This document shows positions 1 through 49,822 of a stretch of 64,000 bases of DNA, in pieces. The position numbers and the translations under genes are program-made. Position 1 is the first letter of the stretch, and the number at the start of each line of letters is the position of its first letter. The notes beneath the pieces are model-generated. The model ran no database searches, was not told where the DNA came from, and was given only the letters and a program-made list of their open reading frames with translations. Source of the stretch: a virus; the IMG/VR virus record IMGVR_UViG_3300045988_168437. The stretch is one strand, 5' to 3'.

Positions 1-2
1 AG

Positions 3-194
3 TTTATAAGCAGAGTACCATCTGGAATATATGGTGGTAAAAATGAAGACGGAGAAGAAGTTATAACAGTTGTATCTCAAGGATTTGGGATGACAATAAA
101 GACTAAACATCATGAGAAACCAAACTGGTGGGAATGTGTTGATTATGATGAACTTGGCTGCATGGAATGTGTAACATATGAAAGAGCAGATTAA
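3..194 (+). CDS. hypothetical protein, 3' fragment (gene starts upstream of window)
   Basis: Frame open from window edge to TAA 192-194; ends ...KPNWWECVDYDELGCMECVTYERAD*; co-oriented with downstream operon. Confidence 0.5.
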   Translation, partial: FISRVPSGIYGGKNEDGEEVITVVSQGFGMTIKTKHHEKPNWWECVDYDELGCMECVTYERAD

Positions 195-197
195 TTA

Positions 198-290
198 GAA
201 GGATAAATTCGAAACAGGTAGAATGAGGCAACTCATTTTACTTGTCTATAAGGTTAAGCTACTTATACTGACGAGATAGCTTAATCCTTC
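198..290 (+). ncRNA. type II hammerhead self-cleaving ribozyme (HH-1)
   Basis: Core CUGACGA 268-274 and GAAA 211-214; stem III 214-227/232-245 capped by GCAA tetraloop; GUC triplet 244-246 (predicted cleavage after C246); stem I 247-252/262-267; open stem II G275-C210, A276-U209, then 198-204/284-290; loop I 255-261 complementary to 277-283 (pseudoknot). Confidence 0.85.
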
Positions 291-312
291 AAAATGAAAG
301 GGGATAAAAAAG

Positions 313-840
313 ATGATGAAAAGAGAAAATGTTGTGAAATTTTTAGATTTATTACGTTCTGATGAAGTTAATGACGAAATAAAAGATTTATATATTGAAC
401 TATTAGAAGGACATATTCAAGATGCTCCAGGAACTCAAATTGAAATTATATTAGACTTAGACGGAGAAATTGATGAAAGATACTTTGTAGGAAATTCAAC
501 TAGAATGGATGTATATGAAGGCGATGCAATAGTTGTAGCAAGTATCAGATATGATGCAAACGTTACTTATGAAGACATGGGAGAATTATCAGATGCTTTA
601 GATGAATCTGAATATGAAAAATTCGTAGAATGGATATTTGCATACGAAGATATATCAGAAGATGATGAAAAAGAATATTTCGAAGAAAACTTTACATGGG
701 AAAATTTTTCAGAATTTAATCCTGATAGATTTAAAGAGCTAGAAGAAGAATCTTGGCAAGCAAATGTTGATTATTACGGATATGAAGAAATTGGGCAAAA
801 ATTATCTGAATGTATACAACAATTAGAAACTTTATTATAG
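313..840 (+). CDS. hypothetical acidic protein
   Basis: 175-aa ORF with SD-like aaagggga upstream; strongly D/E-rich; no family recognised. Confidence 0.6.
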   Translation: MMKRENVVKFLDLLRSDEVNDEIKDLYIELLEGHIQDAPGTQIEIILDLDGEIDERYFVGNSTRMDVYEGDAIVVASIRYDANVTYEDMGELSDALDESEYEKFVEWIFAYEDISEDDEKEYFEENFTWENFSEFNPDRFKELEEESWQANVDYYGYEEIGQKLSECIQQLETLL

Positions 841-856
841 GGGCAGCAATTGCTCC

Positions 857-913
857 TACTTTAAACCTACCAATGATGGTCCAAAGTCCATATGGAAAAA
901 GGTGATGGGAGTA
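857..913 (+). ncRNA. twister self-cleaving ribozyme (Tw-1, P1 type, no P3)
   Basis: P1 857-861/909-913; predicted cleavage U862/A863; P2 865-868/900-903; ACCAAUG linker; P4 876-879/888-891 with loop UCCAAAGU; 3' internal loop GAUGG 904-908. Nearly collinear with the rice Osa-1-4 twister as I recall it (..UAACACUGCCAAUGCCGGUCCCAAGCCCGGAUAAAAGUGGAGGG..). Confidence 0.8.
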
Positions 914-977
914 AATAAAGGCGAAGCTACTAAAATACTCGTCTATATATAAGAGTAGCAATTAAAAGGGGGTAAAA

Positions 978-1292
978 ATGAAGGTATATTTAGGGAATGC
1001 TTTTAGTTTACAAATGTTAGACACAACAAAGACTACAGATATAAAAGTAACACCAGTTGATGCATCAGTTGTAGCAAGTTCAGATTTTACATCAGTTATA
1101 GGTCATCCAGATACAGCTGCAGTAGTTTCAAACATCTTAGGAAAAGACGTAGCTTGTAATAGAGTTTCTGTTAGTTTAAGTAAAGGTGACATTTTATATG
1201 TAGCACAAGTTGTTGGTGGCAGACTTCCTGCTGGAGCTACCACTCTACCAGACGGATTTAGTTTAGTATTTTTAAAAGTTGTCATTCTATAA
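978..1292 (+). CDS. DUF1874 / STIV B116-like protein
   Basis: YLGNAFSLQML at N-terminus and IGHPDTAAVVSNILG...NRVSVSLSKGDILYV match the B116 pattern (FLTNAFSINML ... IGHDSTINLVNTL ... NRVEVKMNEGD) from memory; SD aaaaggggg. Confidence 0.75.
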   Translation: MKVYLGNAFSLQMLDTTKTTDIKVTPVDASVVASSDFTSVIGHPDTAAVVSNILGKDVACNRVSVSLSKGDILYVAQVVGGRLPAGATTLPDGFSLVFLKVVIL

Positions 1293-1357
1293 AAAGGTAG
1301 AAGGCTTATAGGAGTGTCTCAAACTCCTACATTATGTAAATGAAGGGAGAATTAAAA

Positions 1358-1495
1358 ATGAAAGTTAAAAAAGAAATTACAATTGAAGAAGAATTTGAAA
1401 TACATATGAAAAGCATGGAAGGGCATGTTTGCTATGGTTGCTCAGGTTGTAAGTTTGCTTACTATGGAGTTTGCCCATATGTTCAAGAGGGTTAA
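1358..1495 (+). CDS. small Cys-rich protein (45 aa)
   Basis: ATG 1358 preceded by SD gaagggaga; MKVKKEITIEEEFEIHMKSMEGHVCYGCSGCKFAYYGVCPYVQEG*; below ORF-track cutoff. Confidence 0.5.
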   Translation: MKVKKEITIEEEFEIHMKSMEGHVCYGCSGCKFAYYGVCPYVQEG

Positions 1496-1501
1496 TCCCT
1501 C

Positions 1502-1563
1502 TACTTTAAACTCACTTGACTAAGTCAAAAGGTCCAAAGTCCTTGAAAAGAGTGATGGGAGTA
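1502..1563 (+). ncRNA. twister self-cleaving ribozyme (Tw-2, with P3 hairpin)
   Basis: P1 1502-1506/1559-1563; predicted cleavage U1507/A1508; P2 1510-1513/1550-1553 (ACUC/GAGU versus ACCU/AGGU in Tw-1); extra P3 1516-1520/1524-1528; P4 1529-1532/1541-1544 (AAGG/CCUU versus AUGG/CCAU) with identical loop UCCAAAGU; GAUGG 1554-1558. Confidence 0.8.
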
Positions 1564-1583
1564 AATGAAAGGGGTAAAATGAT

Positions 1584-1859
1584 ATGAATAATTCTATTAA
1601 AAGATTAAAAGAAAAATTAATTGGAAAAGAATTCAAAGAAGAAGATTATAATAAAGAGTTAAATAATCTTGTAAAAGAATTTCATTTAGAGGCAAATACT
1701 TGTGATTTTGATTTTGACAGATTATATCACATTGGATATGAAGAAAAAGAAAATTGGGATGATGAATATGTTTGTAGTATACAAGTTAATTATATTCCTG
1801 TATATGATGAAAATGGATATCATGACTTTGATATCATAAAAATATTTGATGTGTTTTAA
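1584..1859 (+). CDS. hypothetical protein
   Basis: 91-aa ORF, SD aaagggg upstream. Confidence 0.6.
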   Translation: MNNSIKRLKEKLIGKEFKEEDYNKELNNLVKEFHLEANTCDFDFDRLYHIGYEEKENWDDEYVCSIQVNYIPVYDENGYHDFDIIKIFDVF

Positions 1860-1889
1860 TATAATTAAATCATATAGGGAGGTATGAAA

Positions 1890-2057
1890 ATGAGAACTTA
1901 CTTAGCAGATTATGAAGACGATAATTTTGAAACAATAATAGCGAATACAGATAATGAAGCTTACTTTGAAGCTCTTGACCATGAAGAAGAACATGGGACT
2001 TTATATAATCTTTTTGAAATTGATGATGACTACAATAAAATAAGAGAAGTTAAATAG
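1890..2057 (+). CDS. hypothetical small acidic protein (55 aa)
   Basis: ATG 1890, SD GGGAGG 1877-1882; MRTYLADYEDDNFETIIANTDNEAYFEALDHEEEHGTLYNLFEIDDDYNKIREVK*; stop TAG 2055-2057. Confidence 0.5.
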   Translation: MRTYLADYEDDNFETIIANTDNEAYFEALDHEEEHGTLYNLFEIDDDYNKIREVK

Positions 2058-2135
2058 AAGGCAAAATTCGAAACCGTGGTGGTCCACGGTCTGTAAGCAA
2101 TAGGCTACTTATACTGACGAGATAGCCTTGCCAAC
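2057..2135 (+). ncRNA. type II hammerhead self-cleaving ribozyme (HH-2)
   Basis: GAAA 2070-2073; stem III 2073-2079/2084-2090; GUC 2089-2091 (cleavage after C2091); stem I 2092-2097/2108-2113; CUGACGA 2114-2120; G2121-C2069; loop I 2102-2107 pairs with 2123-2128 (AGGCUA/UAGCCU versus AAGCUA/UAGCUU in HH-1). Confidence 0.85.
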
Positions 2136-2262
2136 AATAAAAAGGAAGGTAAGATAAAATAGCTATCAAGAACTCGTGAAAACGGGTGTTGAATAAATTA
2201 TCATTTTGGGAGAGGGTTGCCCTCTCCTATCCCCAATATAAATGGGAGAGAGGAGTATAATA

Positions 2263-2613
2263 ATGATAAATACTTATGCTTATGAAATAAAACCACATAT
2301 CTTTGACAGTATTATAGTTACTGTGAAAGATGATGATAATAACTATGTTGAATTATTAGCTATGAAAGATAAGACAATTGGGGATTATAGAACTTTTTTA
2401 CACGGTGAAGTAAATAGCACTATTTTCCAAAAAGATTATCGTAATAGTAAATATTATAAAAAGGTAGGCAGAGGTAGAATAAAGGACGAAAAAAGAACCC
2501 TAGATACAATTAGCAGATTAGTTGGGACAGGAAAACATATTATTCTTTTTCGTTTAGATAACTATATAAAAGATAATAATTTTGAAGGTGACATTAAAAT
2601 ATCATTTAAGTAA
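2263..2613 (+). CDS. hypothetical protein
   Basis: ORF track starts at 2242, but GGGAGAGAGGAG 2244-2255 looks like the SD for ATG 2263 (MINTYAYEIK...). Confidence 0.6.
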   Translation: MINTYAYEIKPHIFDSIIVTVKDDDNNYVELLAMKDKTIGDYRTFLHGEVNSTIFQKDYRNSKYYKKVGRGRIKDEKRTLDTISRLVGTGKHIILFRLDNYIKDNNFEGDIKISFK

Positions 2614-2623
2614 TATATATAAT

Positions 2624-2651
2624 AATCCCCTGATTGGGGGTTATTTTTTTG
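2624..2651 (+). terminator. intrinsic terminator ending the ribozyme operon
   Basis: Stem 2624-2630/2636-2642 (AAUCCCC/GGGGGUU) followed by AUUUUUUUG. Confidence 0.75.
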
Positions 2652-2683: not shown

Positions 2684-2712
2684 TTGCAAGTTTTATATCA
2701 AAATGCTATAAT
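2684..2712 (+). promoter_or_regulatory. sigma70-type promoter
   Basis: TTGCAA 2684-2689, 17-bp spacer, TGcTATAAT with -10 at 2707-2712. Confidence 0.65.
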
Positions 2713-4633: not shown

Positions 4634-5368
4634 ATGTTTACACTAGGCAACAGTAAAATTAAAACGGCACTAAAGAATATATCACAAAGGAAGTATGATT
4701 GTGATGTGTTTAAAATGGAAGTAAATAGTATATCAGAAATATGTAAAAAAGAATTTCAAGCAGAATATAGTAAGATGGAAAAATTCTCTTTCAACAAAGG
4801 ATATCTTGAATTTACATTTAAAGACCAAGCAGTAATTGGTTATTTTGAAATACAAGGATTTAATATAAGTTTAATTATTGCTCCCACAAATAATGTTTAT
4901 GGCAGTAGTTTTATCTTTAATGTAAATATAAAAGATATGCAAGGAGAAGTTGGATATGTAAAGAATTCTTTATTAATATTAGTGGAAGAAGATGAATCTT
5001 TGCATAAGAAAATTGGTGGAATTGGGAAAGCATTATGCGAAGGAATTTTAGTTGCAAATTATTTAGCTCAAACAAATCCAACAATAATAAAAGACAATGA
5101 AACTAGGATTGTTAAAAAGTCAAATAAAAAGGGAAAACATAAAAATAAAACTATCAGGAAAATAAACCTTACTAATATAAGACATGTAAAAGAATACAGT
5201 AATACTAATATAAATACAGATAAAAGAAATTACGAAAGACATACTGAATCTTGGACTGTAAGAGGGCATTACAGACATTATAAAAGTGGTAAGGTAGTTT
5301 GGATAGAACCATCTACTAGAGGGACTGGAAAACCTCAAGGAAAAGTTTACAATATAAATGTTGAATAA
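4634..5368 (+). CDS. hypothetical protein with basic C-terminal motif (paralog of 57981-58715)
   Basis: 244 aa; C-terminus RHTESWTVRGHYRHYKSGKVVWIEPSTRG matches RRTESWKVKGFWRTYKNGKKVWIKPSVRG in the other copy. Confidence 0.65.
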   Translation: MFTLGNSKIKTALKNISQRKYDCDVFKMEVNSISEICKKEFQAEYSKMEKFSFNKGYLEFTFKDQAVIGYFEIQGFNISLIIAPTNNVYGSSFIFNVNIKDMQGEVGYVKNSLLILVEEDESLHKKIGGIGKALCEGILVANYLAQTNPTIIKDNETRIVKKSNKKGKHKNKTIRKINLTNIRHVKEYSNTNINTDKRNYERHTESWTVRGHYRHYKSGKVVWIEPSTRGTGKPQGKVYNINVE

Positions 5369-5381
5369 GGGGGACTAAAAC

Positions 5382-5756
5382 ATGGTAGAAGTAAATAAAT
5401 TATACAGATGCAGACAAGATATAGTTTTAAATCCAAGTACAGTTGATAAAATCAATATATCATTAGACTTAGATATGGGAAATACAGTTATGGCAACTAT
5501 TGATGATGTTGGGATATATAAACCTATAACAATTTCAGAATTTAATTTAGCAAAAGAAATACTTAAGAAAAAAGCAGAGCAGCTAATTATAGAGAATAAA
5601 GAAGTGGACCATGTAATATACTCTATAGTAGAAACTGACTATGAAGGTTATTGTAATCGAATAATTATATGTCTTATTCCTCTTACTCATGAAGAATATG
5701 TTAGAAGAATGAGACTTTTAAATGACACAACAAAGTGTTTTGTATTAAATAGATAA
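5382..5756 (+). CDS. hypothetical protein
   Basis: 124-aa ORF, SD aaggggga. Confidence 0.6.
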   Translation: MVEVNKLYRCRQDIVLNPSTVDKINISLDLDMGNTVMATIDDVGIYKPITISEFNLAKEILKKKAEQLIIENKEVDHVIYSIVETDYEGYCNRIIICLIPLTHEEYVRRMRLLNDTTKCFVLNR

Positions 5757-5770
5757 TAGGAGGGTTTTAT

Positions 5771-6718
5771 ATGAGTAATTGTTATAAAGAGTTTTTAGGA
5801 TATATGAAAGATGTGCAAGGAGTTGATAATAAAACTCTAGTATGTTACGAAAAAAATTTAAAAGACTTTAACGAGTATATTTTTGGCGGGAAAGCAGATA
5901 CTACTTTTGAAGAAATAGCAAACTTAAAAGTATCTGAAATACAAACAAAATGGCTCAATAGACTTAAAGATGAAAAAGGATATAAATCAAATACCTTAAA
6001 TAACCGCATAATTACACTTACAAGACTTTACACATATATGGTAGGAGAAAACTATACTACTGTAAATAAAGGCAAACTAATACCTCATTACAAAGGCGAC
6101 AAGAAAGTTAAAAAAGAAATATCAACTGATGATTATATATCTTTATTAGAAGAACTTAGAAAAAATAGAGATAAAAACTTCACTAGTCTTAGAAATTGGT
6201 TTATGGTAGAATTCTTTTTAGCAACTGGACTTCGTAGAGCGGAAATCATAGCATTAGACATCGAAGATGTAAATATTCTTACTGGTGAAATAAAAGTCAC
6301 TAGAAAATATGACGAAGGTGTTAAATTTGGTAAAGAAAGAATAGAGTATCTTCCAGAAATACTTTTAGATGATTTACACTATTATCTTTCACGCAGATTA
6401 GACATAGAAACAGATAGTGATGCTTTCTTTATTTCTACTCATAAGAAAAGAATGTGTGCATCTAATATCAATAAGTTGCTTAATAAGATAGCAGATAATA
6501 ACGGCATGAAAATACACCCTCATATGCTTAGAGCGGGATTTTCAAGCAATACCATTAATAGTGGTAGGGTAGAATCATATGAAGTCGCAGAAGCGATGGG
6601 ACACAGTAATAAGACTACTACTTTGAACTATTATCATAAGTCTAATACAGAAGTATTAAAGAAAGTTGCCAACAGTAATATGATATTTGACAAAAGACAA
6701 GATGATAATGTAATATAA
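5771..6718 (+). CDS. tyrosine recombinase / integrase (XerC/D-like)
   Basis: LATGLRRAEIIALDIEDV (Arg box), HPHMLRAGF (HxLR), GHSNKTTTLNYYH (GH..Y) catalytic signature. Confidence 0.85.
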   Translation: MSNCYKEFLGYMKDVQGVDNKTLVCYEKNLKDFNEYIFGGKADTTFEEIANLKVSEIQTKWLNRLKDEKGYKSNTLNNRIITLTRLYTYMVGENYTTVNKGKLIPHYKGDKKVKKEISTDDYISLLEELRKNRDKNFTSLRNWFMVEFFLATGLRRAEIIALDIEDVNILTGEIKVTRKYDEGVKFGKERIEYLPEILLDDLHYYLSRRLDIETDSDAFFISTHKKRMCASNINKLLNKIADNNGMKIHPHMLRAGFSSNTINSGRVESYEVAEAMGHSNKTTTLNYYHKSNTEVLKKVANSNMIFDKRQDDNVI

Positions 6719-17176: not shown

Positions 17177-18142
17177 ATGAATAAATTTATAAAAGAAATT
17201 GAGAAAACAAATAAAATAGCCTTATTAACTTACGGAGGCAGCTATGCATATGGAACAAATGTAGAAGGCTCTGATATTGATTTAAGGGGTATATTTCTAC
17301 CTTCTAAATTAGAAATATTATCTATGACATCAGGAGACAAAGCATTGACTGACAATGAAACAGATACAGTTATGTACCCTTTAAAACAAATGATTCAACT
17401 GTTATGTAATGCAAATCCAAATACAATTGAAGTTTTAGGCACGAGAGAGCAAGATATATTCATAATATCAGAGGAAGGGCAAATGCTTAGGAAAAATGTA
17501 AATTTATTTTTAACTAAGAGTAAAGTTCATTCTGCCTTTTTAGGATATGCACAAAATCAATTAAGAAGACTTAAAAATGCAATAGCTCGAGATGATTTAG
17601 AACAGGCAGAAAAAGAGAAACATATTTTAAAATCAGTTGAAAAGAGAATGTCTGCTTTCGAACAGTCATATGCTCCAATAACAAATGGAAAATTAAAGCT
17701 GCACATAGAAAAATCAAATAAAGAAGATTTAGAAGAGGAAATTATGATAGACATGTGCTTAGAAAATTATCCATTACGAGACTGTAAAAAAATGTTAGAT
17801 GAAATGGCAATAACCTTAAAACAATATGGAAAATTAAATCACAGAAATAAAAAGAAAGACGAACAACATCTTCTGAAACATTCTATGCACCTTGTGAGAC
17901 TTTATTTAATGGGAATTGATATATTACAAGGAAATGGAATTAAAACTTACAGAGAGGACGACAGAGAGTTATTATTAGATATTAGAAATGGCAAATATTC
18001 TTATGAACAAATTTATAATATGGCAGAAAAATTAGAAGAAGAATTTAAAGATGTACTGCAAACAAGTAAATTGCCTGAAAAATTAGATTATAACAAAATA
18101 AATAACCTTGTTGCAGAAATAAATAAACAAATGTTAAAATAA
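17177..18142 (+). CDS. nucleotidyltransferase (Pol-beta superfamily, RlaP/PF10127-like)
   Basis: N-terminal TYGGSYAYGTNVEGSDIDLRGIF (GS...SD.D NTase motif). Confidence 0.7.
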   Translation: MNKFIKEIEKTNKIALLTYGGSYAYGTNVEGSDIDLRGIFLPSKLEILSMTSGDKALTDNETDTVMYPLKQMIQLLCNANPNTIEVLGTREQDIFIISEEGQMLRKNVNLFLTKSKVHSAFLGYAQNQLRRLKNAIARDDLEQAEKEKHILKSVEKRMSAFEQSYAPITNGKLKLHIEKSNKEDLEEEIMIDMCLENYPLRDCKKMLDEMAITLKQYGKLNHRNKKKDEQHLLKHSMHLVRLYLMGIDILQGNGIKTYREDDRELLLDIRNGKYSYEQIYNMAEKLEEEFKDVLQTSKLPEKLDYNKINNLVAEINKQMLK

Positions 18143-18217: not shown

Positions 18218-18304
18218 ATGAGAATGACAAGTAGAAGATTCAATAATATAGTTAAGAAAATGATTAAGGAGTTGATAGAAGATGATACTTGCAAAGAAAG
18301 TTAG
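18218..18304 (+). CDS. possible 28-aa basic peptide overlapping the tnpB start
   Basis: ATG 18218 after SD aaaggggg; MRMTSRRFNNIVKKMIKELIEDDTCKES*. Confidence 0.25.
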   Translation: MRMTSRRFNNIVKKMIKELIEDDTCKES

Positions 18305-19397
18305 ATTGCGCCCAAGTGAACTACAAGAAGAAAAATTATGGAAATCAGTAGGGACTGCAAGATTTATTTATAATTGGACTTTAAATAGGCAAGAAGAAAA
18401 TTATAAAGGTGGTGGTAAATTCATACCTGATAGTGTTCTTAGAAAAGAAATAACTCAATTAAAGAAAACTGACTTAAGTTGGTTAAATGAAGTATCTAAT
18501 AATGTTGCAAAACAAGCTGTAAAAGATGCCTGTGATTCATATAAAAGATTCTTTAAAGGATTGTCAGGTAAACCTAGATTTAAAAGTAGGAAAAGAAGTA
18601 AGAAGTCTTTTTATCATGACAATGTTAAACTTAAAGTTAAAGATAATAAATTAGTTAAGATTGAAAAAGTTGGGTGGATAAAAACCAATGAACAATTACC
18701 TATTGGAGTTAAATATACCAATCCGAGAATTAGTTATGATAATAAGTATTGGTATTTATCTGTAGGAATTGAACAGGAAGGAATCCAAGAAGAATTAACA
18801 GAAATATCATTAGGAATAGATTTAGGGTTGAAAAACTTAGCAATTTGTTCCGATGGTGCAATATATAAAAATATAAATAAAACTTGTACAGTCAAAAAAA
18901 TCGAAAAGAAACTAAAAAGATTACAAAGACAAATAAGTAGAAAGTATGAAAAAAATAAAAAAGGAAAGGAGTATGTCAAAACTAAAAATATTATAAAACT
19001 TGAAAAGCAGATACAACAAGTACATAGAAGGTTGACTAACATTAGAAATAACTATCTTCATCAAACTACGACAAGTATAGTGAAAACCAAACCATACAGA
19101 GTTGTAATAGAAGATTTAAGTGTTTCTAATATGATGAAAAATAAACATTTATCTGATGCTATAAGGAAACAAGGATTCTATGAATTCAGAAGACAACTTG
19201 AATACAAGTGTAAATTTAGAGGAATTAAGTTAGTCGTAGCAGATAGATTTTATCCATCGTCAAAAATTTGTAGCCAATGTGGAGAGATTAAGAAGGATTT
19301 AAAGCTATCCGATAGAGTATACAAGTGTGATTGTGGGCTTGTGATTGATAGAGATTTAAATGCAAGTATTAATCTTTCTAAATATAAATTAGCATAA
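18282..19397 (+). CDS. tnpB: TnpB (IS200/IS605-family OrfB, RNA-guided nuclease)
   Basis: KKVRLRPSELQEEKLWKSVGTARFIYNWTL N-terminus; RuvC triad candidates GIDLGLKNLA, VIEDLSVSNM, DRDLNASINL; zinc ribbon CSQCGE...YKCDCG. Confidence 0.85.
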   Translation: MILAKKVRLRPSELQEEKLWKSVGTARFIYNWTLNRQEENYKGGGKFIPDSVLRKEITQLKKTDLSWLNEVSNNVAKQAVKDACDSYKRFFKGLSGKPRFKSRKRSKKSFYHDNVKLKVKDNKLVKIEKVGWIKTNEQLPIGVKYTNPRISYDNKYWYLSVGIEQEGIQEELTEISLGIDLGLKNLAICSDGAIYKNINKTCTVKKIEKKLKRLQRQISRKYEKNKKGKEYVKTKNIIKLEKQIQQVHRRLTNIRNNYLHQTTTSIVKTKPYRVVIEDLSVSNMMKNKHLSDAIRKQGFYEFRRQLEYKCKFRGIKLVVADRFYPSSKICSQCGEIKKDLKLSDRVYKCDCGLVIDRDLNASINLSKYKLA

Positions 19398-19560
19398 TAT
19401 CATTAATAAGATAATGCTAATATGTAGGATGTGTTGTATCCGAATTTACGCCCTTGGAGAGTTATATCAAACGAAAGTAGGTTGTTATTTATAATTTCCA
19501 AAATCGAATTCGTAGAACAGGGAATTAAACAAGATTTATAGATATTTATAGATTTTTGGC
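19280..19560 (+). ncRNA. candidate omega/reRNA scaffold of TnpB (boundaries not determined)
   Basis: By analogy with characterised TnpB loci, the guide RNA overlaps the 3' end of tnpB and the right end. Hairpins are visible at 19390-19420 and 19494-19527. No right-end boundary could be fixed by eye. Confidence 0.3.
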
Positions 19561-19649: not shown

Positions 19650-20600
19650 ATGCTAAAACTTATAACTCATAATGATTTAGACGGAGTTGGGTGTGGGATT
19701 ATTGCAAGTTATATACTGGGAAATGGAATAGACATAAGTTATTGTAGTAATCATCAAGTCGATAAAGTTTTTTCAGATGCTTTATCTAGTGGAGAATACG
19801 AAATGATAATTCTAACAGATGTAAGCATTAATAAAGAAAATGCAGAAAAGGTTAAAGAATCAGATATGAACGTTCTTTTATTAGACCATCATCCAACTGC
19901 ACTTTGGTTAAATGAATATCCGTTTGCTAAAGTTTTTATAGAAGATGCAGATGGAACAAAGACTTGTGGAACTCAACTATTTGCAAGTTTCCTTTATCAA
20001 TCAATAGAGGAAGACAAAGATTTCCACAAAGGCAGAAAAATGTTTGAAATGGTTACAAATAAAGTTCTTTGGAAATTTGTAAAACTAGTAACTTATTGGG
20101 ACACATGGCAATGGAAAGAAGAAAATATATTAGAAGCAAAAGAGCTTAATATGTTATTTGACATTTATGGACTTGAAGAATTTTCAAAGCTAATTAAAAA
20201 GAAATTTGAAAACTATGAGCTATATGGAGACGATTCTAGTTTCTTTGGAATGGCAGAAAGACATGTATTAAAATTAAGACAAAGAGAAATAGATGATTTG
20301 TTCAAAAAGAAAAATAAATCATTAAAGAAAACTAAATTCGAAGGTCATGATGTTGGAGTTATATTCTGTGATAGATTTTATTCAGAAATAGGAAATAGAA
20401 TTTGTGAAGAGAATTCTGACATAGATTTTGTGGTTATGTTACAAGACTATACTACAAGCCTTAGAGGTATAGATAAAGTTAATTTAGGAGATATCGCCAA
20501 AAAATACGGTGGTGGAGGACATAATAATGCTGCAGGATTCCCAATTGGTGCAGTAAATTTTATAGATGAAATATTGGGTGATATGAATGATTTCTTATAA
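19650..20600 (+). CDS. DHH-family phosphoesterase (NrnA/RecJ-core-like)
   Basis: HNDLDGVGCG, LLLDHHP and GGGGHNNAAGF (DHH and DHHA1 motifs). Confidence 0.8.
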   Translation: MLKLITHNDLDGVGCGIIASYILGNGIDISYCSNHQVDKVFSDALSSGEYEMIILTDVSINKENAEKVKESDMNVLLLDHHPTALWLNEYPFAKVFIEDADGTKTCGTQLFASFLYQSIEEDKDFHKGRKMFEMVTNKVLWKFVKLVTYWDTWQWKEENILEAKELNMLFDIYGLEEFSKLIKKKFENYELYGDDSSFFGMAERHVLKLRQREIDDLFKKKNKSLKKTKFEGHDVGVIFCDRFYSEIGNRICEENSDIDFVVMLQDYTTSLRGIDKVNLGDIAKKYGGGGHNNAAGFPIGAVNFIDEILGDMNDFL

Positions 20601-29338: not shown

Positions 29339-31021
29339 ATGAAGATAAAGTTAAATAAAACAACAGAAGACATTAAAACAAACATGTTGACTAATCGAGG
29401 ATTGACTGTAGAAGAAGTAAATAATCTTTTAAATCCAACTGGAAAAATGGTAGAAAGTATTTCTCATTATAATGTTGAAAAAGGGATTGATATGTATTTA
29501 AATTCAATAAAAAATAATGAATTAATTGCCACTTTAGTAGATGTAGATGCAGATGGTTATTGTTCTTCTTCTATAGTATATCAAGTTACAACAGACGAAT
29601 TTGGATATGAAAATATTGTTTATATACTTCAAGACGGCAAAACTCATGGACTTACAAGAAAGGTTGTAGATAAACTTCTAAATTCAGATGTAAAATTACT
29701 GATAATTCCAGATGCGGGTTCAGATAATATTAAATTATTAAAAGAAATTTCAACACATGGTATTAGTGTACTGATACTGGACCATCATATAATTGAATTG
29801 CCAATGGATGAATTAAATAGTTTACATAATATTGTTCTAGTAAACTGTCAGAATGGAATTGTAGAAAATAAATATCTATCAGGAACTGGAGTCACATATA
29901 AATTTTTTAGTGAAGTGGCTAAAAAACAAGGAATAAAGCTAAGAAGTAAATATTTAGACTTAGTTGCTCTTAGTCTTATTACAGATGTGTGTGATATGAA
30001 ATTTAGTTTTGAAAATAGATATTATCTTTCTCAAGGTTCGAAAATAAGCAAAATAACTAATCCATTAATTGAACTTTTCAAAGAAAAACTTAAAAAGAAA
30101 AGCAAAGATAAGTTTTCTATTACAGAGTTTGGATTTGAAATAGGCCCAAAGATAAATGCAATTATACGATATGGGACATTAGAAGAAAAAGAAATTCTTT
30201 TTAATGCAATGATTGGAGTTGAAGAATTACTACCGAATAAAAAGACATATCAACAAGAAACTTACACTATTGGTAGTAGATATCAAAGAATTCAAAGAGA
30301 ATCCAGTAAAGAAATTATTCCATTACTCAATGACATTGTAGAAGAGACAAAAGCAAATGAGAAACCTGTAATTTTTATAGATGGGACAGACATTGTTCCA
30401 AAGGAAATAAAAGGATTATTATGTAACAAAATGCTTGATATATATAAAAAGCCAATTATGATTTCCACTTTAGATAATGGAATTTATAGTGGTAGTAGCA
30501 GAAGTATAAAAACAGAACAATTATCTGATTTTAAATCTTTTTGTGAAAAAAGTCAATTGTTTGAATGGGTTCGTGGACATAATAATGCACATGGACATAA
30601 GATTAAAAAAGAAAACATACCTAAATTTTTAGAATACTGTGACAATAATTTAGATATGCAAGAGTATCAAGAGGAAGTAGAAAATATTTATGTAAATGAA
30701 ATACCTCTTGAAGATGTAGTAGAAATAGCTAATTATGAAGAATTATGGTGCAATCAAATAGAACCACCAAAATACCTTCTTAAAGGAGTTTGTTTAACTC
30801 CTGAAAGCATAGTTAGAGCAGGAAGTTCAACTTATAACATAATAATAGGAGATGTTAAATTTACTAAAGAATTTGGTTCTTTAGCTTGGTATAATGAAGT
30901 TTTAGATGAAATTTCAAAAACGGGATTATTAAATGTTGAACTTATTGTTGAATTTAGACAACAAAAGAATAAACAACCTTACGCAAAAATTCTTGAATTG
31001 AGGTGGGAACATGAAAGTTAG
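29339..31021 (+). CDS. RecJ-like single-strand DNA exonuclease (DHH/DHHA1)
   Basis: VDVDADGYCSS, LILDHHI and GHNNAHGH motifs; 560 aa. Confidence 0.75.
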   Translation: MKIKLNKTTEDIKTNMLTNRGLTVEEVNNLLNPTGKMVESISHYNVEKGIDMYLNSIKNNELIATLVDVDADGYCSSSIVYQVTTDEFGYENIVYILQDGKTHGLTRKVVDKLLNSDVKLLIIPDAGSDNIKLLKEISTHGISVLILDHHIIELPMDELNSLHNIVLVNCQNGIVENKYLSGTGVTYKFFSEVAKKQGIKLRSKYLDLVALSLITDVCDMKFSFENRYYLSQGSKISKITNPLIELFKEKLKKKSKDKFSITEFGFEIGPKINAIIRYGTLEEKEILFNAMIGVEELLPNKKTYQQETYTIGSRYQRIQRESSKEIIPLLNDIVEETKANEKPVIFIDGTDIVPKEIKGLLCNKMLDIYKKPIMISTLDNGIYSGSSRSIKTEQLSDFKSFCEKSQLFEWVRGHNNAHGHKIKKENIPKFLEYCDNNLDMQEYQEEVENIYVNEIPLEDVVEIANYEELWCNQIEPPKYLLKGVCLTPESIVRAGSSTYNIIIGDVKFTKEFGSLAWYNEVLDEISKTGLLNVELIVEFRQQKNKQPYAKILELRWEHES

Positions 31022-37859: not shown

Positions 37860-38219
37860 GTGATTGTAAAAGGTGATGAATATATTAAAAAAATGAGAAC
37901 ACAGATTCTTTTAAACAGTTCAGATGTAATGTCTCCTACTTTTTCTCATATTTCATATAGTGAGAAAATAAATAATGAAAAAGATATGACATTAATGAGA
38001 TATGTTGATTACGAAGAATTTACATTAAATGAAATGATTAGAATGTTCAAGAGTTTAATAAATCGCAATATTCATTTAGATACAGAAAAAATATTAAGTA
38101 AGAAAACTAGATATATAATTGGAGATTTAAGAATAGAAAATCCTAAAGTATCAAGTAGGTGTGGATTTATTGAGTTACCAATAAGAGTAATTGAGGAGGA
38201 ACAAATATGGCAGAAGTAG
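37860..38219 (+). CDS. hypothetical protein
   Basis: 119-aa ORF, GTG start, start uncertain. Confidence 0.5.
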   Translation: MIVKGDEYIKKMRTQILLNSSDVMSPTFSHISYSEKINNEKDMTLMRYVDYEEFTLNEMIRMFKSLINRNIHLDTEKILSKKTRYIIGDLRIENPKVSSRCGFIELPIRVIEEEQIWQK

Positions 38220-38614
38220 ATTATAAATTTCAACGTTGTGATAGAGATGAAAATGGCAATTTTAAATTAACAACTATTAAACCATTAGAAGATATCTTTA
38301 AAGATTTAGAAAATTACAATAAATATTTGGAAGATGTAATTGTTGATTTACGAAAAGAAGTAAAAAAATTAAAAAACTTTAATAAAGACGAAGAAATTGA
38401 AAAGCTTAAAAAAGAAATAGAAAATTTGGAAGAACAATCAGTTTATATCTTAACTAAATCTCAAAAAGAAAAAATGGAAAAATTCAGACACGAACACTAT
38501 AAAATGACAGGTCATAGTTATCATCAAGTTGTATTAAGACCCAACGAGATATTTACAAAGGTTGTAATACAATGTGATAAATGTGATGAAGAATTAGATT
38601 TGACTATATATTAA
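38207..38614 (+). CDS. hypothetical coiled-coil protein
   Basis: 135-aa ORF, SD gaggagga. Confidence 0.6.
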   Translation: MAEVDYKFQRCDRDENGNFKLTTIKPLEDIFKDLENYNKYLEDVIVDLRKEVKKLKNFNKDEEIEKLKKEIENLEEQSVYILTKSQKEKMEKFRHEHYKMTGHSYHQVVLRPNEIFTKVVIQCDKCDEELDLTIY

Positions 38615-38628
38615 GTGGAGAAAATATA

Positions 38629-38697
38629 ATGTATTTATTGTGTTTTTTGTTTGGAATAGTAATTGGAATGGCTATTTTAAGTATTTTAGAAAAATAG
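38629..38697 (+). CDS. 22-aa hydrophobic peptide
   Basis: SD gtggag; MYLLCFLFGIVIGMAILSILEK*. Confidence 0.35.
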   Translation: MYLLCFLFGIVIGMAILSILEK

Positions 38698-38713
38698 AAA
38701 TTGAGGTGAAAAT

Positions 38714-39064
38714 ATGAATAGAACACAATTAAATGACAGATTTGATAAATATTGTGAACAAAAAGATTGTGAGAGAATCTGTACATTAGAAAACTATAGA
38801 GATTGTTTTATTGGTTATTTATTAGATAATTATGATTTAAAATTAAAAGAAGAACCAAAAATTGACTGGACAAAAGTTCCAGTCGATGCTAAAATATTGG
38901 TAAGAGAATTTCATAACGATAGATGGCTTAAAAGACGATTTGCAAAATTCGAAAATGGAAAAGTATATGCTTTTCAACTTGGAATGGATTCTTGGACAAC
39001 AGGAATTAAATCTCCGATAAGTTGGAATTTTGCAAAATTAGTTGACAAACTTGAACAAAAATAA
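38714..39064 (+). CDS. hypothetical protein (shares C-terminal domain with 28588-29247)
   Basis: 116-aa ORF, SD gaggtga. Confidence 0.6.
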   Translation: MNRTQLNDRFDKYCEQKDCERICTLENYRDCFIGYLLDNYDLKLKEEPKIDWTKVPVDAKILVREFHNDRWLKRRFAKFENGKVYAFQLGMDSWTTGIKSPISWNFAKLVDKLEQK

Positions 39065-39095
39065 TGTTTTTAAATAATAAAACGGAGGAAATGAA

Positions 39096-39890
39096 ATGGG
39101 ATTATTTAACAAATTGTTTGGAAAACAAGAAAACAAAGAAGAATCTTTGAAAGTGGGAACACAAAATATAACGCCACAAGGTATTACAGATGTTGAATTT
39201 AAAATGCCAGATAGCACTGAACAAATGAGAAAAATCAATCTTAGAAAAGAAACTTTAAATAAGGTATGCTTAACTAAAGAGCCTTTGAATAACTTAACAG
39301 CAAGAGTTGTTGTAGCACTTGACTATTCTGGCTCAATGAGAAGTTTATACAAAAATGGAGCAGTACAAGATGTTTTGAATAGATTATTACCTTTAGGATT
39401 AAAATTTGATGATAACGGAGAAGTTGAGCTACATTTATTTTCAAATAAATCTTGGCAAATTCCTTCATTAAATATAAACAATTTTTACAATTATATAAAT
39501 AAGAATAAAATTTTAAAAAAATACGAAATGGGCGGAACTAATTATGCTCCTGTCATGGAATCAATAATTAAAGAACATTCGTCACATAAAGACAAAGTAC
39601 CAACTTTTGTTATTTTTATTACAGATGGAGATGCATGGGATAAGCCTAAATCAGAAAAAGTTATTAAAGATGCATCAAAATTAGGAATCTTTTGGCAGTT
39701 TGTTGGAATTGGATATGAAGATTTTGATTTCTTAGAAAAACTAGATGACATGACTGGAAGAGTTGTTGATAATGCAGATTTTTTAAATGTAAATAAAATA
39801 GCAAACCTATCTGATGAAGAACTATATGCTAAATTATTAGGAGAATTTCCAAACTGGATTCAAGCTGCTAAAAATAAAAACATAATTTAA
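39096..39890 (+). CDS. vWA-domain protein (TerF C-terminal-like / TerY-like)
   Basis: MIDAS-like VVALDYSGSM, GGTNYAPV and VIFITDGD; WQFVGIG. Confidence 0.7.
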   Translation: MGLFNKLFGKQENKEESLKVGTQNITPQGITDVEFKMPDSTEQMRKINLRKETLNKVCLTKEPLNNLTARVVVALDYSGSMRSLYKNGAVQDVLNRLLPLGLKFDDNGEVELHLFSNKSWQIPSLNINNFYNYINKNKILKKYEMGGTNYAPVMESIIKEHSSHKDKVPTFVIFITDGDAWDKPKSEKVIKDASKLGIFWQFVGIGYEDFDFLEKLDDMTGRVVDNADFLNVNKIANLSDEELYAKLLGEFPNWIQAAKNKNII

Positions 39891-39944
39891 CAGACGGTGA
39901 GAGAGTAATTTACTCTCTCATTTTACTAGAAAGGAATAATTTTT

Positions 39945-40712
39945 ATGAGCAAAAAAATAGATAGGACAGGAGAAGAAAGACATAATAATTTTGGAAGCAA
40001 AATGATTATAAAGGAATACAGAAACAATATGGATATAGATGTATATTTCCCAGAATATAATTACACAAAATATAATGTTAAATATAAACCATTCCAAACA
40101 GGGCAAATTCGCTGCCCTTATGAAAAGAGAGCATACGGAAAAGGATATTTAGGGGAAGGAAAATATCCAACAAAGATAAACAAAAAAAGAACAAAACCAT
40201 ATCTCAAATGGACTCAAATGTTATTAAGATGTTACGATGAAAATTATAAGAAAAAACAAAAAACATACGAAAACTGTAAAGTTTGTGACGAATGGTTAAA
40301 TTTCCAAAATTTTGCAGAATGGTATGAAGAAAATTATTATGAGATAAAAGGACAAAATATGCAATTAGATAAGGATATATTAATTAAAGGGAATAAAATA
40401 TATAGTCCTAAAACATGTGTATTCGTTCCCCAAGATATAAATCTTCTTTTTGTTAAGAGAGAAACATGTAGAGGAGATTTACCGATTGGAGTACATTGCG
40501 ATAAAACTAAAAAGAAAGTATTTATATCTAGCATTGGAATAAACAATAACACTATTTCTTTAGGAAGATATAAAACTCCAGAAGAAGCATTTGTGGCATA
40601 TAAAGAATATAAAGAAAAAATAATTAAGGAATTTGCCAATAAATATAAAACTCAAATACCACAAAAACTTTATGATGCTATGTATCAATACGAAGTAGAA
40701 ATAACAGATTAA
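39945..40712 (+). CDS. free-standing homing-endonuclease-like DNA-binding protein (AP2-like C-terminus)
   Basis: W..MLLRCYDENY...CDEWLNFQNFAEWYEENYY...LDKDIL.KGNKIYSPKTCVFV...LPIGVH...ISLGRYKTPEEAFVAYKEYKE; typical phage endonuclease architecture; catalytic class not assigned. Confidence 0.5.
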   Translation: MSKKIDRTGEERHNNFGSKMIIKEYRNNMDIDVYFPEYNYTKYNVKYKPFQTGQIRCPYEKRAYGKGYLGEGKYPTKINKKRTKPYLKWTQMLLRCYDENYKKKQKTYENCKVCDEWLNFQNFAEWYEENYYEIKGQNMQLDKDILIKGNKIYSPKTCVFVPQDINLLFVKRETCRGDLPIGVHCDKTKKKVFISSIGINNNTISLGRYKTPEEAFVAYKEYKEKIIKEFANKYKTQIPQKLYDAMYQYEVEITD

Positions 40713-40723
40713 GGAGCGATTTT

Positions 40724-43700
40724 ATGAAAACATATGTTAATTATCACAAACATAGTTATTACTCAAATGCTTTTGTGCAAGATTCAACTGTATCTGTAGA
40801 ACAATATTTAGAAAGAATTGCAGAATTAGGGCATAAAGCATATTCGACAGTAGAACATGGATACATGGGAATGTTTTACAATCATTACTTAGAAGTAGAA
40901 AAATTTAATAAAAAAAGAATTGATAGAGGTTTAGAGCCTATAAAAATAATTGCAGGATGTGAGGCATATTGGGTTCAAAATCGTTTCGAAAAAGATAAGG
41001 CAAATGGACATATAGTTCTTTTGGCTAGAAATAATAACGGAAGAAAAGCCATAAATAGAATTACAAGTCAGGCGAATAAAGACGGATACTATTATAAGCC
41101 TAGAGTTGATTTAGAACTTCTTATGACCCTTCCTCCAAATGATGTAATGATAACAACGGCTTGCATCGCTTTTAATAGATATGAAGACATAGATGATATA
41201 ATACTTATGTTAAATGATAGATTTCCACATTTTTATTTAGAAGTTCAAGCACATAATGTAGAAACTCAAAAGAAATGGAATCAACACCTTTTAGATTTAA
41301 GCTATGAGTATGATTTAAAAATAATTGCAGGGTGCGATTCTCATATGATAAATAAAAGTCAAGAGATTGAAAGAGATAATTATTTAAAAAGTTATAAAAT
41401 ATCATATGAAGAAGAAAGTGGTTGGGATTTAACATATCCAGACTACGATACTTTGTTTAAAAATTTTCAAAGACAAGGAGTTTTATCGGACGAAGAAATA
41501 TCTATTGCTATAGATAACACGAATAAAATTTTGGATTTTGAAGATATAATATTAGATAAGAATTTGAAATTACCAAATGTATATCCTGATTTATCTCAAG
41601 AAGAAAGAAATATAAAGTTGAAAAATCTTGTATATGAAAATTGGGAAAAGGAAAAAATAAACATACCTCAAAAAGAATGGAAACATTATAAGGAACAAAT
41701 TGAATATGAGTTATCTGAAATAATAGGTTGTCATATGGCAGATTATTTCTTATTAAATGAAAAAATAGTTGGATTAGGAATTAAGAAATATGGGGGAATT
41801 TTAACTCATAGTTCAAGAGGTTCTGCTGGTGGATGTTATATAGGCAAACTGTTAGGATTTACAAATATAGATAGAATAAATGCCCCAGTTCCTCTGATAT
41901 TTGAAAGATTCCTTACAAAAGACAGAATATTAAAAAGTAAAAGTCTAGTAGATATAGATTGGAATGTTGCAGACAGACAACCATTTATAATGGCTCAAAA
42001 AGAGTTATTAGGAGAAAAAAGTTCATATGATTTATTAGCATTTGGAACATTAAAAACAAAAGCTGCTTTTAAACTCTATTGTAGAGCTTGTAATGTAAAC
42101 CCAGAAGAGGCCAATGAAGTTTCTAAACAAATTGAAAAGTACGAAGAAAAACTTAAATATGCAGAACGAGACGATACAGGAGAATTATTAGAAGAAATTA
42201 ATATTGAAGACTTTGTTGAACCTAAGTATTCTTATTTAATAGAAGAAAGTAAAAAATATCTTGGGATAAAAACAAATGCGAGACCACACCCTTGTGGGTT
42301 TTGTACGACTTCAATCAATTTAGAGGAAGAAATTGGAATTATAAAAGTTAAATCAGAGGCTACGAGAAATGAGGTTTTATGCGTCTGTATAGAAAGTGGA
42401 GATATGGATGCATTTCAATTTGTAAAAGAAGATTTCTTAAAAGTTGAAGTGGTAAAAACAACAAATGAAATATACAAAAGAATAGGAATCTCACAACCTT
42501 CTGTTTCAGAATTATTAAATATTGTAAAAAACAATGATAAAGTTTGGAATATCTATGCAAAGGGATTAACATTAGGAATTAATCAAGTAGAACAAGAGGG
42601 AAGTAGAAATAAATGTAAAAAATATAAACCTAAGAATATCGTAGAATTAACAGCTTTTGTTGCTGCGATTAGACCATCGTTTAAGTCTTTAGTAAAACAA
42701 TTTATATCAAGAAAATCTTTTGAGTATGGAATAAAAGAATTGGACGAACTTTTACAAACAAAAGAAATGCCATATTCCTATATCTTCTATCAAGAACAAT
42801 TAATGAAAATACTCGAATTTGCAGGATTTCCAATGAAGGAAACATATGACATTATCAAAATGATTAGTAAGAAAAAAACTTATTGTGCAAATTGTGGAAC
42901 TATAGGTAACGATGGAATGACAATTTGTCCTTCTTGTAAGGGACGAGTAATAAAACCTTTAGTTGATAAATATAAGGAACAATTCGTAGAAGGATTTATT
43001 AAGAGAACTGGAGAAGGTAATTCGGACATGGCCCTTAAAGTATATCAAATAGTTGTTGATTTTGCTAAATATGGATTTAACTGTTCGCATAGCTATGCGA
43101 TGGCTTTAGATTCAGTAGAACAAGCATATTTAAAAGCATATTATTCAGGAGAATTTTATGAGGTAATGTTAAGAACATATACTGAAAAAGGAGAAAAAGA
43201 TAAAGTAAGCGCCTTTAAACAAGAAATGAAAAACTTTGGCATCAAATTAGGTAAAATAGCTTTTGGAGAAAATAATTATGAGTTTAAATACATTCCTGAA
43301 AAGAATGAAATAACTCAAAATATAACTTCTTTTAAAAATATAAATCAACAATGTGCGATAGAGTTATATAAACTTTCTCAAGCTAAACGCTATAATAATT
43401 TTTTAGAATTATTAAAAGATATAAAAGAAAAAACTTCAATCTCAAAAAGACAATTAGACCCACTTATAGATATGGGATATTTTGCAGAATTTGGAAACAC
43501 ACAATATATTAGAAAATGTTATGAAGTATTTGAAATGTTTTATAAAAAAGTACAATTTAGTAATACAAATCCATATTCTTATATTATTGAAAAATACGCT
43601 AATAAAAAAACTCTTAAGCAATACAGAGAAGTAGATACAGATAAAGTAATGTTAGATATCATGAGTAACTATGATAAAGCTGTGAGCGACATTGAAAAGG

Positions 43701-43996: not shown

Positions 43997-44005
43997 TTTT
44001 CTTAG

Positions 44006-44034
44006 TTGACATACCGAAATAAAAATACTATAAT
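44006..44034 (+). promoter_or_regulatory. sigma70-type promoter
   Basis: TTGACA 44006-44011, 17 bp, TATAAT 44029-44034. Confidence 0.7.
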
Positions 44035-44157
44035 TAACTTATAAAATACATAAGCAAATAAATAATTAATATGCCACCTATTAATGCAGAATGTGTTTTA
44101 ATTAGGGTAATATGTTTTATTTTTCTTGTGATTAGGTGGCATATGGAAAGGATGTAA

Positions 44158-44412: not shown

Positions 44413-44414
44413 AC

Positions 44415-46075: not shown

Positions 46076-46084
46076 GGAGAAACT

Positions 46085-46243: not shown

Positions 46244-46251
46244 GAGAAAAT

Positions 46252-47051: not shown

Positions 47052-47065
47052 GAAGAAGGAGTTAA

Positions 47066-49819: not shown

Positions 49820-49822
49820 TTT

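Follow-up and report, generated by a model that had tools for sequence, protein, structure and literature searches.

Clusters of self-cleaving ribozymes among phage genes were described by Perreault et al. in 2011, who found multiple hammerheads flanking single genes or short blocks in prophages, proposed that they process mRNA to gene length, and showed cleavage for three such arrangements, clustered prophage hammerheads being active both in vitro and in vivo (PMC3088659). Here we analyze a stretch of 64,000 nucleotides (nt) from a virus (IMG/VR virus record IMGVR_UViG_3300045988_168437, hereafter the window), which begins within an operon of small genes separated by candidate self-cleaving ribozymes. 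Judged from its sequence, this locus adds to the known kind, the ribozyme-flanked gene clusters of phages. As in the clusters of 2011, its hammerheads are of type II, stem II is very short and loop I forms a pseudoknot with the 3′ tail, several co-oriented ribozymes flank individual small phage genes, and the same processing hypothesis applies (PMC3088659). It differs from them in that three classes are mixed in one operon, with 15 ribozymes per roughly 8 kb, in that the hammerheads are AT-rich, do not reach the Rfam threshold and are closed by an additional outer helix that covaries, and in that strain variants swap the ribozyme class before the same gene. Pure type II hammerhead arrays were also found in unrelated IMG/VR contigs, namely L061 (6 in 5.3 kb), L119 (about 11 in 12.5 kb) and L055 (about 6 in 2 kb); these have higher G+C, many of their hammerheads reach the Rfam gathering score, and at E <= 0.05 they showed ribozymes of no other class.

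Twister and hammerhead ribozymes are known to co-occur near phage genes, with their function unresolved according to reviews, and pistol, hatchet and twister-sister were discovered through such neighbourhoods (Roth 2014 and Weinberg 2015, as cited there; PMC6765202, PMC5737381). The present locus likewise has both classes within a few kb, near phage-type genes, but its twisters are a lineage-specific variant with A-U in pseudoknot T1 and AC/GU in pseudoknot T2. The third class, resembling the hepatitis delta virus (HDV) ribozyme, has the minimal double-pseudoknot core of drz-Fpra-1 (RF02682) and the theta ribozymes, which are also from human-gut phage DNA (PMC10879173), and shares with them P3/L3 CCUCCNCGUGG, the catalytic C in CUAA and a reduced P4. 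However, theta ribozymes adjoin and process tRNAs (PMC10879173), whereas the HDV-like copies here precede protein-coding cassettes, in the positions taken elsewhere by hammerheads or twisters. The PeSL elements of T4-type phages are likewise repeated intergenic modules. They lie beside small variable early genes, and where close relatives differ by an insertion, deletion or replacement, the breakpoints coincide with these modules (PMC2839356, PMC4122927); PeSLs are promoter-terminator DNA and RNA motifs, whereas the module here is a self-cleaving ribozyme plus a ribosome-binding site (RBS). Cis-cleavage in a Firmicute mRNA leader that gives a 5′-OH downstream fragment is known from glmS, and is predicted here from the sequence; glmS, however, depends on a metabolite and triggers decay by RNase J1, whereas the present ribozymes have no evident ligand domain and number 15 in one operon. 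RiboJ is an engineered insulator in which a cis-cleaving ribozyme between the upstream context and the RBS standardises the mRNA 5′ end. The ribozymes here stand in the same place, but the array is natural and insulation is only proposed.

The mix of HDV-like, hammerhead and twister ribozymes in one operon, with 15 in about 8 kb, goes beyond anything that we found described in the literature, and the same is true of the conserved pre-cleavage hairpins and the natural class swaps. The question of what self-cleaving ribozymes do in bacteria and phages goes back to the hammerhead clusters of 2011 and the twister neighbourhoods reported in 2014-15, and in 2019 a review still called their roles “largely elusive” (PMC6765202). 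The locus leaves this general picture unchanged, yet it is an unusually informative test bed, having 15 ribozymes of three classes in a common geometry and natural variants that set the same gene behind a hammerhead or a twister; recurrent assembly from gut samples also makes existing metatranscriptomes informative.

Identity of the ribozymes in the window

Four motifs on the + strand of the window look like genuine hammerhead and twister self-cleaving ribozymes (Table 1). When the whole window was scanned at the Rfam gathering thresholds, the only match was RAGATH-18 at 19451-19524, a motif of a TnpB element that was rejected as part of the array, and no ribozyme of the array was reported. 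In a scan by E-value, pistol, hatchet, twister-sister and HDV ribozymes were not found in the window, and the first three were not detected with Rfam in the upstream array either. An earlier note on this DNA, which had pointed out the four motifs, named scores below the gathering thresholds as a result that would count against them, and the scores of all the ribozymes are indeed below. Identity must therefore rest on other evidence, namely descriptor matches compared with shuffled sequence, covariation, and a covariance model (R1) made from an alignment of 12 hammerhead copies, all paralogues from this phage lineage.

The descriptor for type II hammerheads required CUGANGA, GAAA, the A15.1-U16.1 pair, H17 and three stems in type II order, and its + strand matches were just 211-274, with C17 at 246, and 2070-2120, with C17 at 2091. 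A descriptor with stricter stems gave two matches in the window, compared with a mean of 0.07 in shuffles (100 dinucleotide shuffles of the 64-kb window, both strands). The catalytic core is complete in both window copies (CUGACGA, GAAA, the A-U pair and C17), and the core columns are invariant across the 12 aligned copies. Stem II has only 2 base pairs (bp) in both window hammerheads, and an extra outer helix closes the element. When stems I, II and III and the pseudoknot were examined in the 12-copy alignment, 98.1% of the cells were paired and nine pairs had changes on both sides, a result reached by none of 500 column shuffles, and slid controls were 34-50% paired. Both-side changes occur in six of the eight pairs of stem III, and stem I is 98.6% paired. 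The pseudoknot between loop I and the 3′ tail has 6-8 bp, is formed by AGGCUA/UAGCCU or by UUAAGCUA/UAGCUUAA, and has two pairs changed on both sides.

In the 64-kb window, R1 detected 195-294 and 2054-2140; another match at 20324-20389 (18.8 bits, E 0.038) is inside an open reading frame (ORF) and was judged to be due to chance. In unrelated IMG/VR contigs R1 found more than 100 elements, and because many of them reach the gathering score of Rfam Hammerhead_II, we regard the window hammerheads as AT-rich, divergent members of the type II hammerhead family. A hammerhead-pattern scan of genome contigs returned unrelated single type II hammerheads from many phyla, which are not this element, and the DNA of the array and of hammerhead 2 had no match among GenBank phages. 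In some hammerheads of other strains, an extra U is present between A9 and G10.1 (CUGAUGA-U-GAUAGCC), with the rest of the core and the helices kept (L001 7269-7358, 11741-11830 and 12379-12469; L073 1717-1818 and 3690-3792). This U is absent from both window hammerheads, and the copies that have it may represent either an active core variant or decay.

Both twisters align over their full length to the Rfam twister-P1 model, and the predicted cleavage sites come from that alignment (the E-values in Table 1 are from a 3-kb scan). A strict descriptor that included P1, P2, P4 and both pseudoknots matched exactly these two in the window, compared with 0.03 in shuffles. Since the twister and HDV-like copies were not in register when aligned with MAFFT, pairing in these classes was counted by parsing the copies field by field, and P1, P2, P4, T1 and T2 were paired in all nine distinct twister copies of the lineage that were parsed. 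The T1 pseudoknot covaries, being CCA/UGG in both twisters of the window but CGC/GCG in another subtype (consensus, CCC/GGG), and so does T2, which is AC/GU, AG/CU or GC/GC; P2 covaries between the two window twisters, ACCU/AGGU versus ACUC/GAGU. Consensus nucleotides (UAA, GGUCC, AAG and GA-GG) are mostly retained. Among IMG/VR contigs the pattern of this twister variant was found only in L073, a relative of this phage. The descriptors, the covariation and the Rfam alignment thus bear out the two hammerheads and two twisters of the earlier note, together with the four predicted cleavage sites.

Layout of the array and its variation between strains

The window corresponds to contig L003 (ena:ERZ27261314:k119_117257), with 0 mismatches over the 10,840 nt compared, and window positions were obtained by subtracting 9688 from L003 positions. 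The window start falls inside an operon of roughly 9 kb, which continues in similar style for ~6 kb upstream, where the spacers are 100-140 nt and nearly all contain a ribozyme. The L003 operon has 15 ribozymes (6 HDV-like, 6 type II hammerhead and 3 twister), which lie from L003 4051 to 11816, all on the coding strand, and precede 15 of the 19 ORFs. Their order is HDV, HDV, HDV, hammerhead, HDV, HDV, hammerhead, hammerhead, twister, hammerhead, HDV, and then, in the window, hammerhead, twister, twister, hammerhead. The compact operon of four ribozymes described in the earlier note is, in fact, the last part of an array of 15 with three classes, and the alternation of hammerheads and twisters noted there is incidental, because the full order mixes the three classes otherwise. 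No further array ribozymes were found elsewhere in the 64-kb window by Rfam E-value, R1 and HDV-like scans. Among the spacers of the window, the 65-nt one before 1358 gave no ribozyme match in the Rfam E-value scan or with R1, and the 30-nt one between 1584-1859 and 1890-2057 has no ribozyme.

A dedicated scan found no HDV-like ribozyme inside the window, and all six on L003 lie before window position 1. With RF02682, whose gathering threshold is 44, the highest score of an HDV-like copy is 40.2 bits. All 16 distinct copies listed can be parsed into P1 of 6-7 bp, P2 of 5-8 bp, a CC/GG P3, L3 UYCNCGU and CUAA. P1 begins with G1 at the predicted cleavage site, the nested double pseudoknot fits, and P1 and P2 differ in sequence among copies with complementarity kept.

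In 14 of the 15 junctions a hairpin ends 1-5 nt before the predicted cleavage site, the exception being the promoter-proximal HDV-like copy. This hairpin is stem III in the hammerheads and a separate hairpin in the twister and HDV-like copies, and those of the non-hammerhead junctions exceed random 40-mers in stability (Mann-Whitney p = 6e-6). For twister 1, the 45 nt before the predicted cleavage site fold at -10.7 kcal/mol, and the upstream product of cleavage would have the hairpin there at its 3′ end; the one before twister 2 folds at -9.6 kcal/mol and ends 5 nt before the site. On the other side, a nearly invariant RBS module, AAAGGGGAUAAAnAUG, follows most ribozymes at 16-38 nt. Hammerhead 1 and twister 2 are directly before the RBS, with 30 and 21 nt, respectively, from the ribozyme end to the ATG.

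Comparison of strains showed that genomes 98-99% identical in the flanks differ by entire gene cassettes. L001 8079-9979 is absent from L007, where the junction falls in the RBS module, and as a result the gene for the 175-aa (amino acid) protein (313-840) follows a twister there, not the hammerhead behind which it is found in 10 loci. The class of ribozyme before the same gene varies among genomes for four genes, including this one. In L006 the missing part is 5074-6502, and the deletion joins two 130-nt HDV-like modules; further cassette swaps start or stop within hammerheads. Each of the 15 distinct breakpoints is in a spacer or no more than about 15 nt from an ORF start, and copies of the ribozyme module have long identical stretches in common. 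This coincidence of breakpoints with modules suggests that the modules may also act as recombination substrates, as do the PeSL modules in T4-type phages (PMC2839356). Directly downstream of the ribozyme operon, L002 (13023-16899) and L004 (13023-15076) have an IS200/IS605-type element (Y1 transposase and OrfB); the L002 insertion also has an HNH gene, and the insertion is absent from the window's own contig.

Table 1. Features at the 5′ end of the window, from the ribozyme operon to the start of the next operon
Feature	Position	Strand	Basis and details
g13 of array, 88-aa ORF, 3′ part	3..194	+	Starts upstream: L003 9616-9882 = window -72..194
Candidate type II hammerhead 1	198..290	+	Descriptor; R1 82 bits at 195-294; fold z-score -6.2
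Hammerhead 1, outer helix	198-204/284-290	+	
Hammerhead 1, stem II	U209 C210 / G275 A276	+	
Hammerhead 1, G12A13A14	211-213	+	
Hammerhead 1, stem III	214-245	+	14 bp
Hammerhead 1, C17	246	+	Predicted cut 246/247
Hammerhead 1, stem I	247-252/262-267	+	
Hammerhead 1, core CUGACGA	268-274	+	
Hammerhead 1, pseudoknot	254-261 with 277-284	+	Loop I with 3′ tail
175-aa ORF, very acidic	313-840	+	Aspartate plus glutamate (D+E) 29%; RBS module AAAGGGGAUAAAAAAG before it (feature 297..840)
Hairpin 5′ of twister 1	838..857	+	Overlaps stop codon 838-840; ends 4 nt before predicted site
Candidate type-P1 twister 1, no P3	858..912	+	Rfam twister-P1 34.4 bits, E 5e-5; descriptor parse; predicted cut U862/A863
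Twister 1, parts		+	P1 ACUU/GAGU; P2 ACCU/AGGU; P4 AUGG/CCAU; L4 UCCAAAGU; T1 CCA/UGG; T2 AC/GU
Orphan conserved stem-loop GCUACU...AGUAGC	926..959	+	Between twister 1 and RBS of B116-like gene
104-aa STIV B116-like ORF	978-1292	+	PF08960 E 7e-10; phrog_5063 E 7e-18
Hairpin UAGGAGU/ACUCCUA	1309..1329	+	Sequence and fold; in 65-nt spacer without ribozyme
45-aa Cys-rich ORF	1358-1495	+	ORF list
Hairpin AGAGGG-UUAAU-CCCUCU	1486..1502	+	Stop codon 1493-1495 in loop; directly 5′ of twister 2
Candidate type-P1 twister 2, with P3	1503..1562	+	Rfam twister-P1 46.6 bits, E 1.6e-8; descriptor parse; predicted cut U1507/A1508
Twister 2, parts		+	P1 ACUU/GAGU; P2 ACUC/GAGU; P3 UUGAC/GUCAA; P4 AAGG/CCUU; T1 CCA/UGG; T2 AC/GU
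Acidic small ORF, 91 aa	1584-1859	+	ORF list
Acidic small ORF, 55 aa	1890-2057	+	ORF list
Candidate type II hammerhead 2	2057..2135	+	Descriptor; Rfam Hammerhead_II 28.8 bits; R1 86 bits; covariation
Hammerhead 2, outer helix	2060-2064/2128-2132	+	
Hammerhead 2, stem II	U2068 C2069 / G2121 A2122	+	
Hammerhead 2, GAA	2070-2072	+	
Hammerhead 2, stem III	2073-2090	+	
Hammerhead 2, C17	2091	+	Predicted cut 2091/2092
Hammerhead 2, stem I	2092-2097/2108-2113	+	
Hammerhead 2, core CUGACGA	2114-2120	+	
Hammerhead 2, pseudoknot	2102-2107 with 2123-2128	+	
Conserved structured leader, 127 nt	2136..2262	+	Minimum free energy -32.4 kcal/mol
116-aa ORF, last of operon	2263-2613	+	ORF list
Intrinsic terminator	2621-2651	+	Sole + strand terminator of whole ribozyme array
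Promoter-like site, TTGCAA-17-TATAAT, extended TG	2684..2712	+	Start of next operon

Possible roles of the junction modules

Starting from the observed motifs and their covariation, the operon layout, the regularity of the hairpins, the interchangeability of classes and the breakpoints in modules, we consider it likely that interchangeable self-cleaving junction modules cut the transcript into single-gene mRNAs. The operon would be a string of single-gene, occasionally two-gene, cassettes, joined at most junctions by a portable module composed, in order, of a hairpin after the stop codon, a self-cleaving ribozyme, an A-rich linker and the near-identical strong RBS. We infer that each ribozyme would cut the nascent transcript in cis and thereby affect mRNA stability or translation. 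The upstream mRNA would be left with the hairpin plus a 2′,3′-cyclic phosphate end, and the 5′-OH of the downstream mRNA would be base-paired in hammerhead stem I or HDV-like P1, or at most 2 nt away from helix P2 in the twisters, with the standard RBS coming next. Every cassette would then be expressed from its own defined mRNA, irrespective of the upstream context. Because the modules resemble one another, they would also be sites of cassette gain, loss and swap between strains, with recombination as the putative cause of the shuffling.

Three unrelated folds hold equivalent positions and replace one another before the same gene, and this class-independence argues that selection appears to act on the cut and the resulting ends, not on a function specific to one fold. 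A broader version, in which the modules both insulate cassette expression and provide homology for shuffling, as a ribozyme counterpart of integron attC or T4 PeSL, is put forward tentatively, as we would give it somewhat less than an even chance.

Several results weigh against the proposal that the modules produce single-gene mRNAs. As to identity, hammerhead 2 scores 28.8 bits with Hammerhead_II at 2066-2131, where the gathering threshold is 37, and was seen only when a 106-nt slice was scanned; 198-290 gave no Hammerhead_II match even in a 111-nt scan; and the twister scores of 46.6 and 34.4 bits are below the threshold of 67.2. Both window twisters have A for U in the “UAAA” junction, among other departures from the consensus, and given these departures their activity is not guaranteed. 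As to geometry, twister 1 and hammerhead 2 are not adjacent to the RBS, with 65 and 134 nt of conserved structured leader between, and the earlier statement that each ribozyme lies just before the next Shine-Dalgarno (SD) sequence therefore holds for hammerhead 1 and twister 2 only. A nested-fold estimate of RBS accessibility, made to test insulation, showed no significant difference between cleaved and uncleaved RNA (0.69 versus 0.61, p = 0.14). Breakpoints in intergenic positions are also expected from selection for intact genes alone. On a separate point, the co-orientation of ribozymes and genes and the single terminator are as the earlier note gave them, but two internal sigma70-like promoters are located upstream of the window start, at window -1750 and -598, each with a ribozyme ~30-45 nt after it, and given these the array is probably not the one transcript assumed there. 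Finally, a 5′-OH end is a substrate of RNase J1 in Firmicutes, so that cleavage need not mean stable mRNAs and could destabilise them.

This last point leads to the main rival reading, in which 5′-OH fragments would be fed to RNase J1 and the short half-lives would serve a sharp temporal shut-off, or low leakage from a plasmid or prophage, of genes that are early and possibly toxic. As a precedent, RNase J1 of B. subtilis degrades the 5′-OH fragment left by glmS cleavage (PMC3328962); a low-GC Firmicute is the likely host here, the cassette genes encode small acidic proteins of early type, and promoter-proximal ribozymes would strip the protective 5′-triphosphate even from primary transcripts. 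On the other hand, the conserved hairpins placed exactly at the new 3′ ends look protective, as does the burial of the 5′ ends in helices of the ribozymes, and fifteen strong RBS modules point to efficient expression, so we rate a destabilising role as improbable, at about one chance in six.

A role in DNA only, in which the ribozymes are recombining or selfish repeats that mediate cassette shuffling and cleavage has no expression role of its own, would account for the location of all the cassette indel breakpoints in modules, one deletion joining two 130-nt HDV-like modules and another two RBS modules, and for the long identical stretches among the copies. However, every copy is on the coding strand, and the three unrelated folds keep their catalytic cores, with compensatory changes in helices and pseudoknots, which indicates selection on RNA structure and not on DNA identity; we judge this reading quite unlikely. 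Less probable still, and very unlikely in our estimate, is that the end chemistry itself is the purpose, the 5′-OH and 2′,3′-cyclic phosphate fragments being destined for RtcB-type ligation into circular or rejoined mRNAs, or evading or occupying host RNA sensing and repair. Each internal cassette RNA would bear both types of end, the phage encodes an RlaP nucleotidyltransferase, a beta-CASP/RMMBL nuclease and DHH phosphoesterases, and circular products were considered for the hammerhead clusters; but Perreault et al. sought spliced or circular products and found none (PMC3088659), and neither RtcB nor any other RNA ligase was found in the 64-kb window and the flanks that were examined. That the motifs only resemble active ribozymes, having arisen by chance or by decay, is hardly credible despite the sub-threshold Rfam scores, the twister consensus deviations and the extra U after A9 in some copies of other strains, given four matches observed against 0.03-0.07 expected from shuffles, the extensive covariation and the complete hammerhead cores.

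Neighbouring features, replicon and likely host

The ORF list gives seven co-oriented + strand ORFs in 1-2651, not the eight of the earlier note, whose B116-like assignment and terminator are both supported, the latter now at slightly different limits (Table 1). The 175-aa protein is found 100% identical on human-gut contigs of 114-142 kb, and 146 blocks of the collection list it. Upstream, three tandem strong sigma70-like promoters precede the array (L001 3122, 3223 and 3318). They are at the end of a stretch of 2.6 kb without called genes (L001 1100-3700), which separates the array from a divergent actin-like (ALP_N) partition gene. The R1 scan of the window found no ribozymes in the operon that begins downstream of the promoter-like site at 2684-2712.

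Two spacer structures outside the ribozymes are conserved. The stem of the stem-loop at 926-959 becomes GUUACC/GGUAAC in the divergent relative L073 (about 2830-2865), where the loop AAAAUrCUCGUCUAwAUAUAA is retained, and the E-value scan gave no match to any Rfam family. In the leader at 2136-2262, a hairpin at 2208-2227 is formed by GGGAGAGGG/CCCUCUCC, and its 3′ arm has the SD at 2244-2255 (GGGAGAGAGGAG) as a possible alternative partner. In L001 and L073, a different gene is preceded by the first ~100 nt of the leader, hairpin included; as modeled, the leader may be a translational switch.

The window has 27.6% G+C, and nearly all of its genes are on the same strand. Their products include PolIII alpha, a DnaB-like helicase, ERF, RuvC, NrdD/NrdG, dUTPase, YorF, YopX, an amidase endolysin and tyrosine recombinases, and the actin-like partition gene is just upstream of the array. 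This phage gene content agrees with the phage-like replicon assumed in the earlier note. PolIII alpha is 35-38% identical to the homologues of Geobacillus virus E3 and C. difficile phiCD211/phiCDIF1296T (35% for phiCD211), and likewise to those of C. difficile and C. botulinum plasmid-prophages. In phiCD211, the first 50 kb form the structural module. Close relatives were not found among GenBank phages, and a near-identity search of PLSDB with window 38000-50000 gave only a trivial nrdG match; the phage has been assembled many times from human-gut samples. The replicon is likely a phage or phage-plasmid of roughly 140 kb from low-GC gut Firmicutes. Products of the cassette genes are small and in many cases very acidic (D+E 24-31%), RadC, DUF7222, DUF8033 and B116-like were the only domains found, and this character would fit an early region of the host-takeover type.

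Genes for RNA-end or nucleotide processing are located at window 17177-18142, 19650-20600, 29339-31021 and 44415-45872, and their products are an RlaP “RNA repair pathway” nucleotidyltransferase, DHH/DHHA1 and DHH phosphoesterases, and a beta-CASP/RMMBL nuclease, the last with a weak match to anti-Pycsar Apyc1. A link between these proteins and RNA ends made by the ribozymes is speculative. The TnpB gene at 18282-19397 has HTH_OrfB_IS605, OrfB_IS605 and Cas12f1-like TNB domains, and the RAGATH-18 motif (67.6 bits), which is unrelated to the ribozyme array, is 3′ of this gene; the pairing of the two fits the published IS607 system of TnpB and its reRNA guide (PMC11061315).

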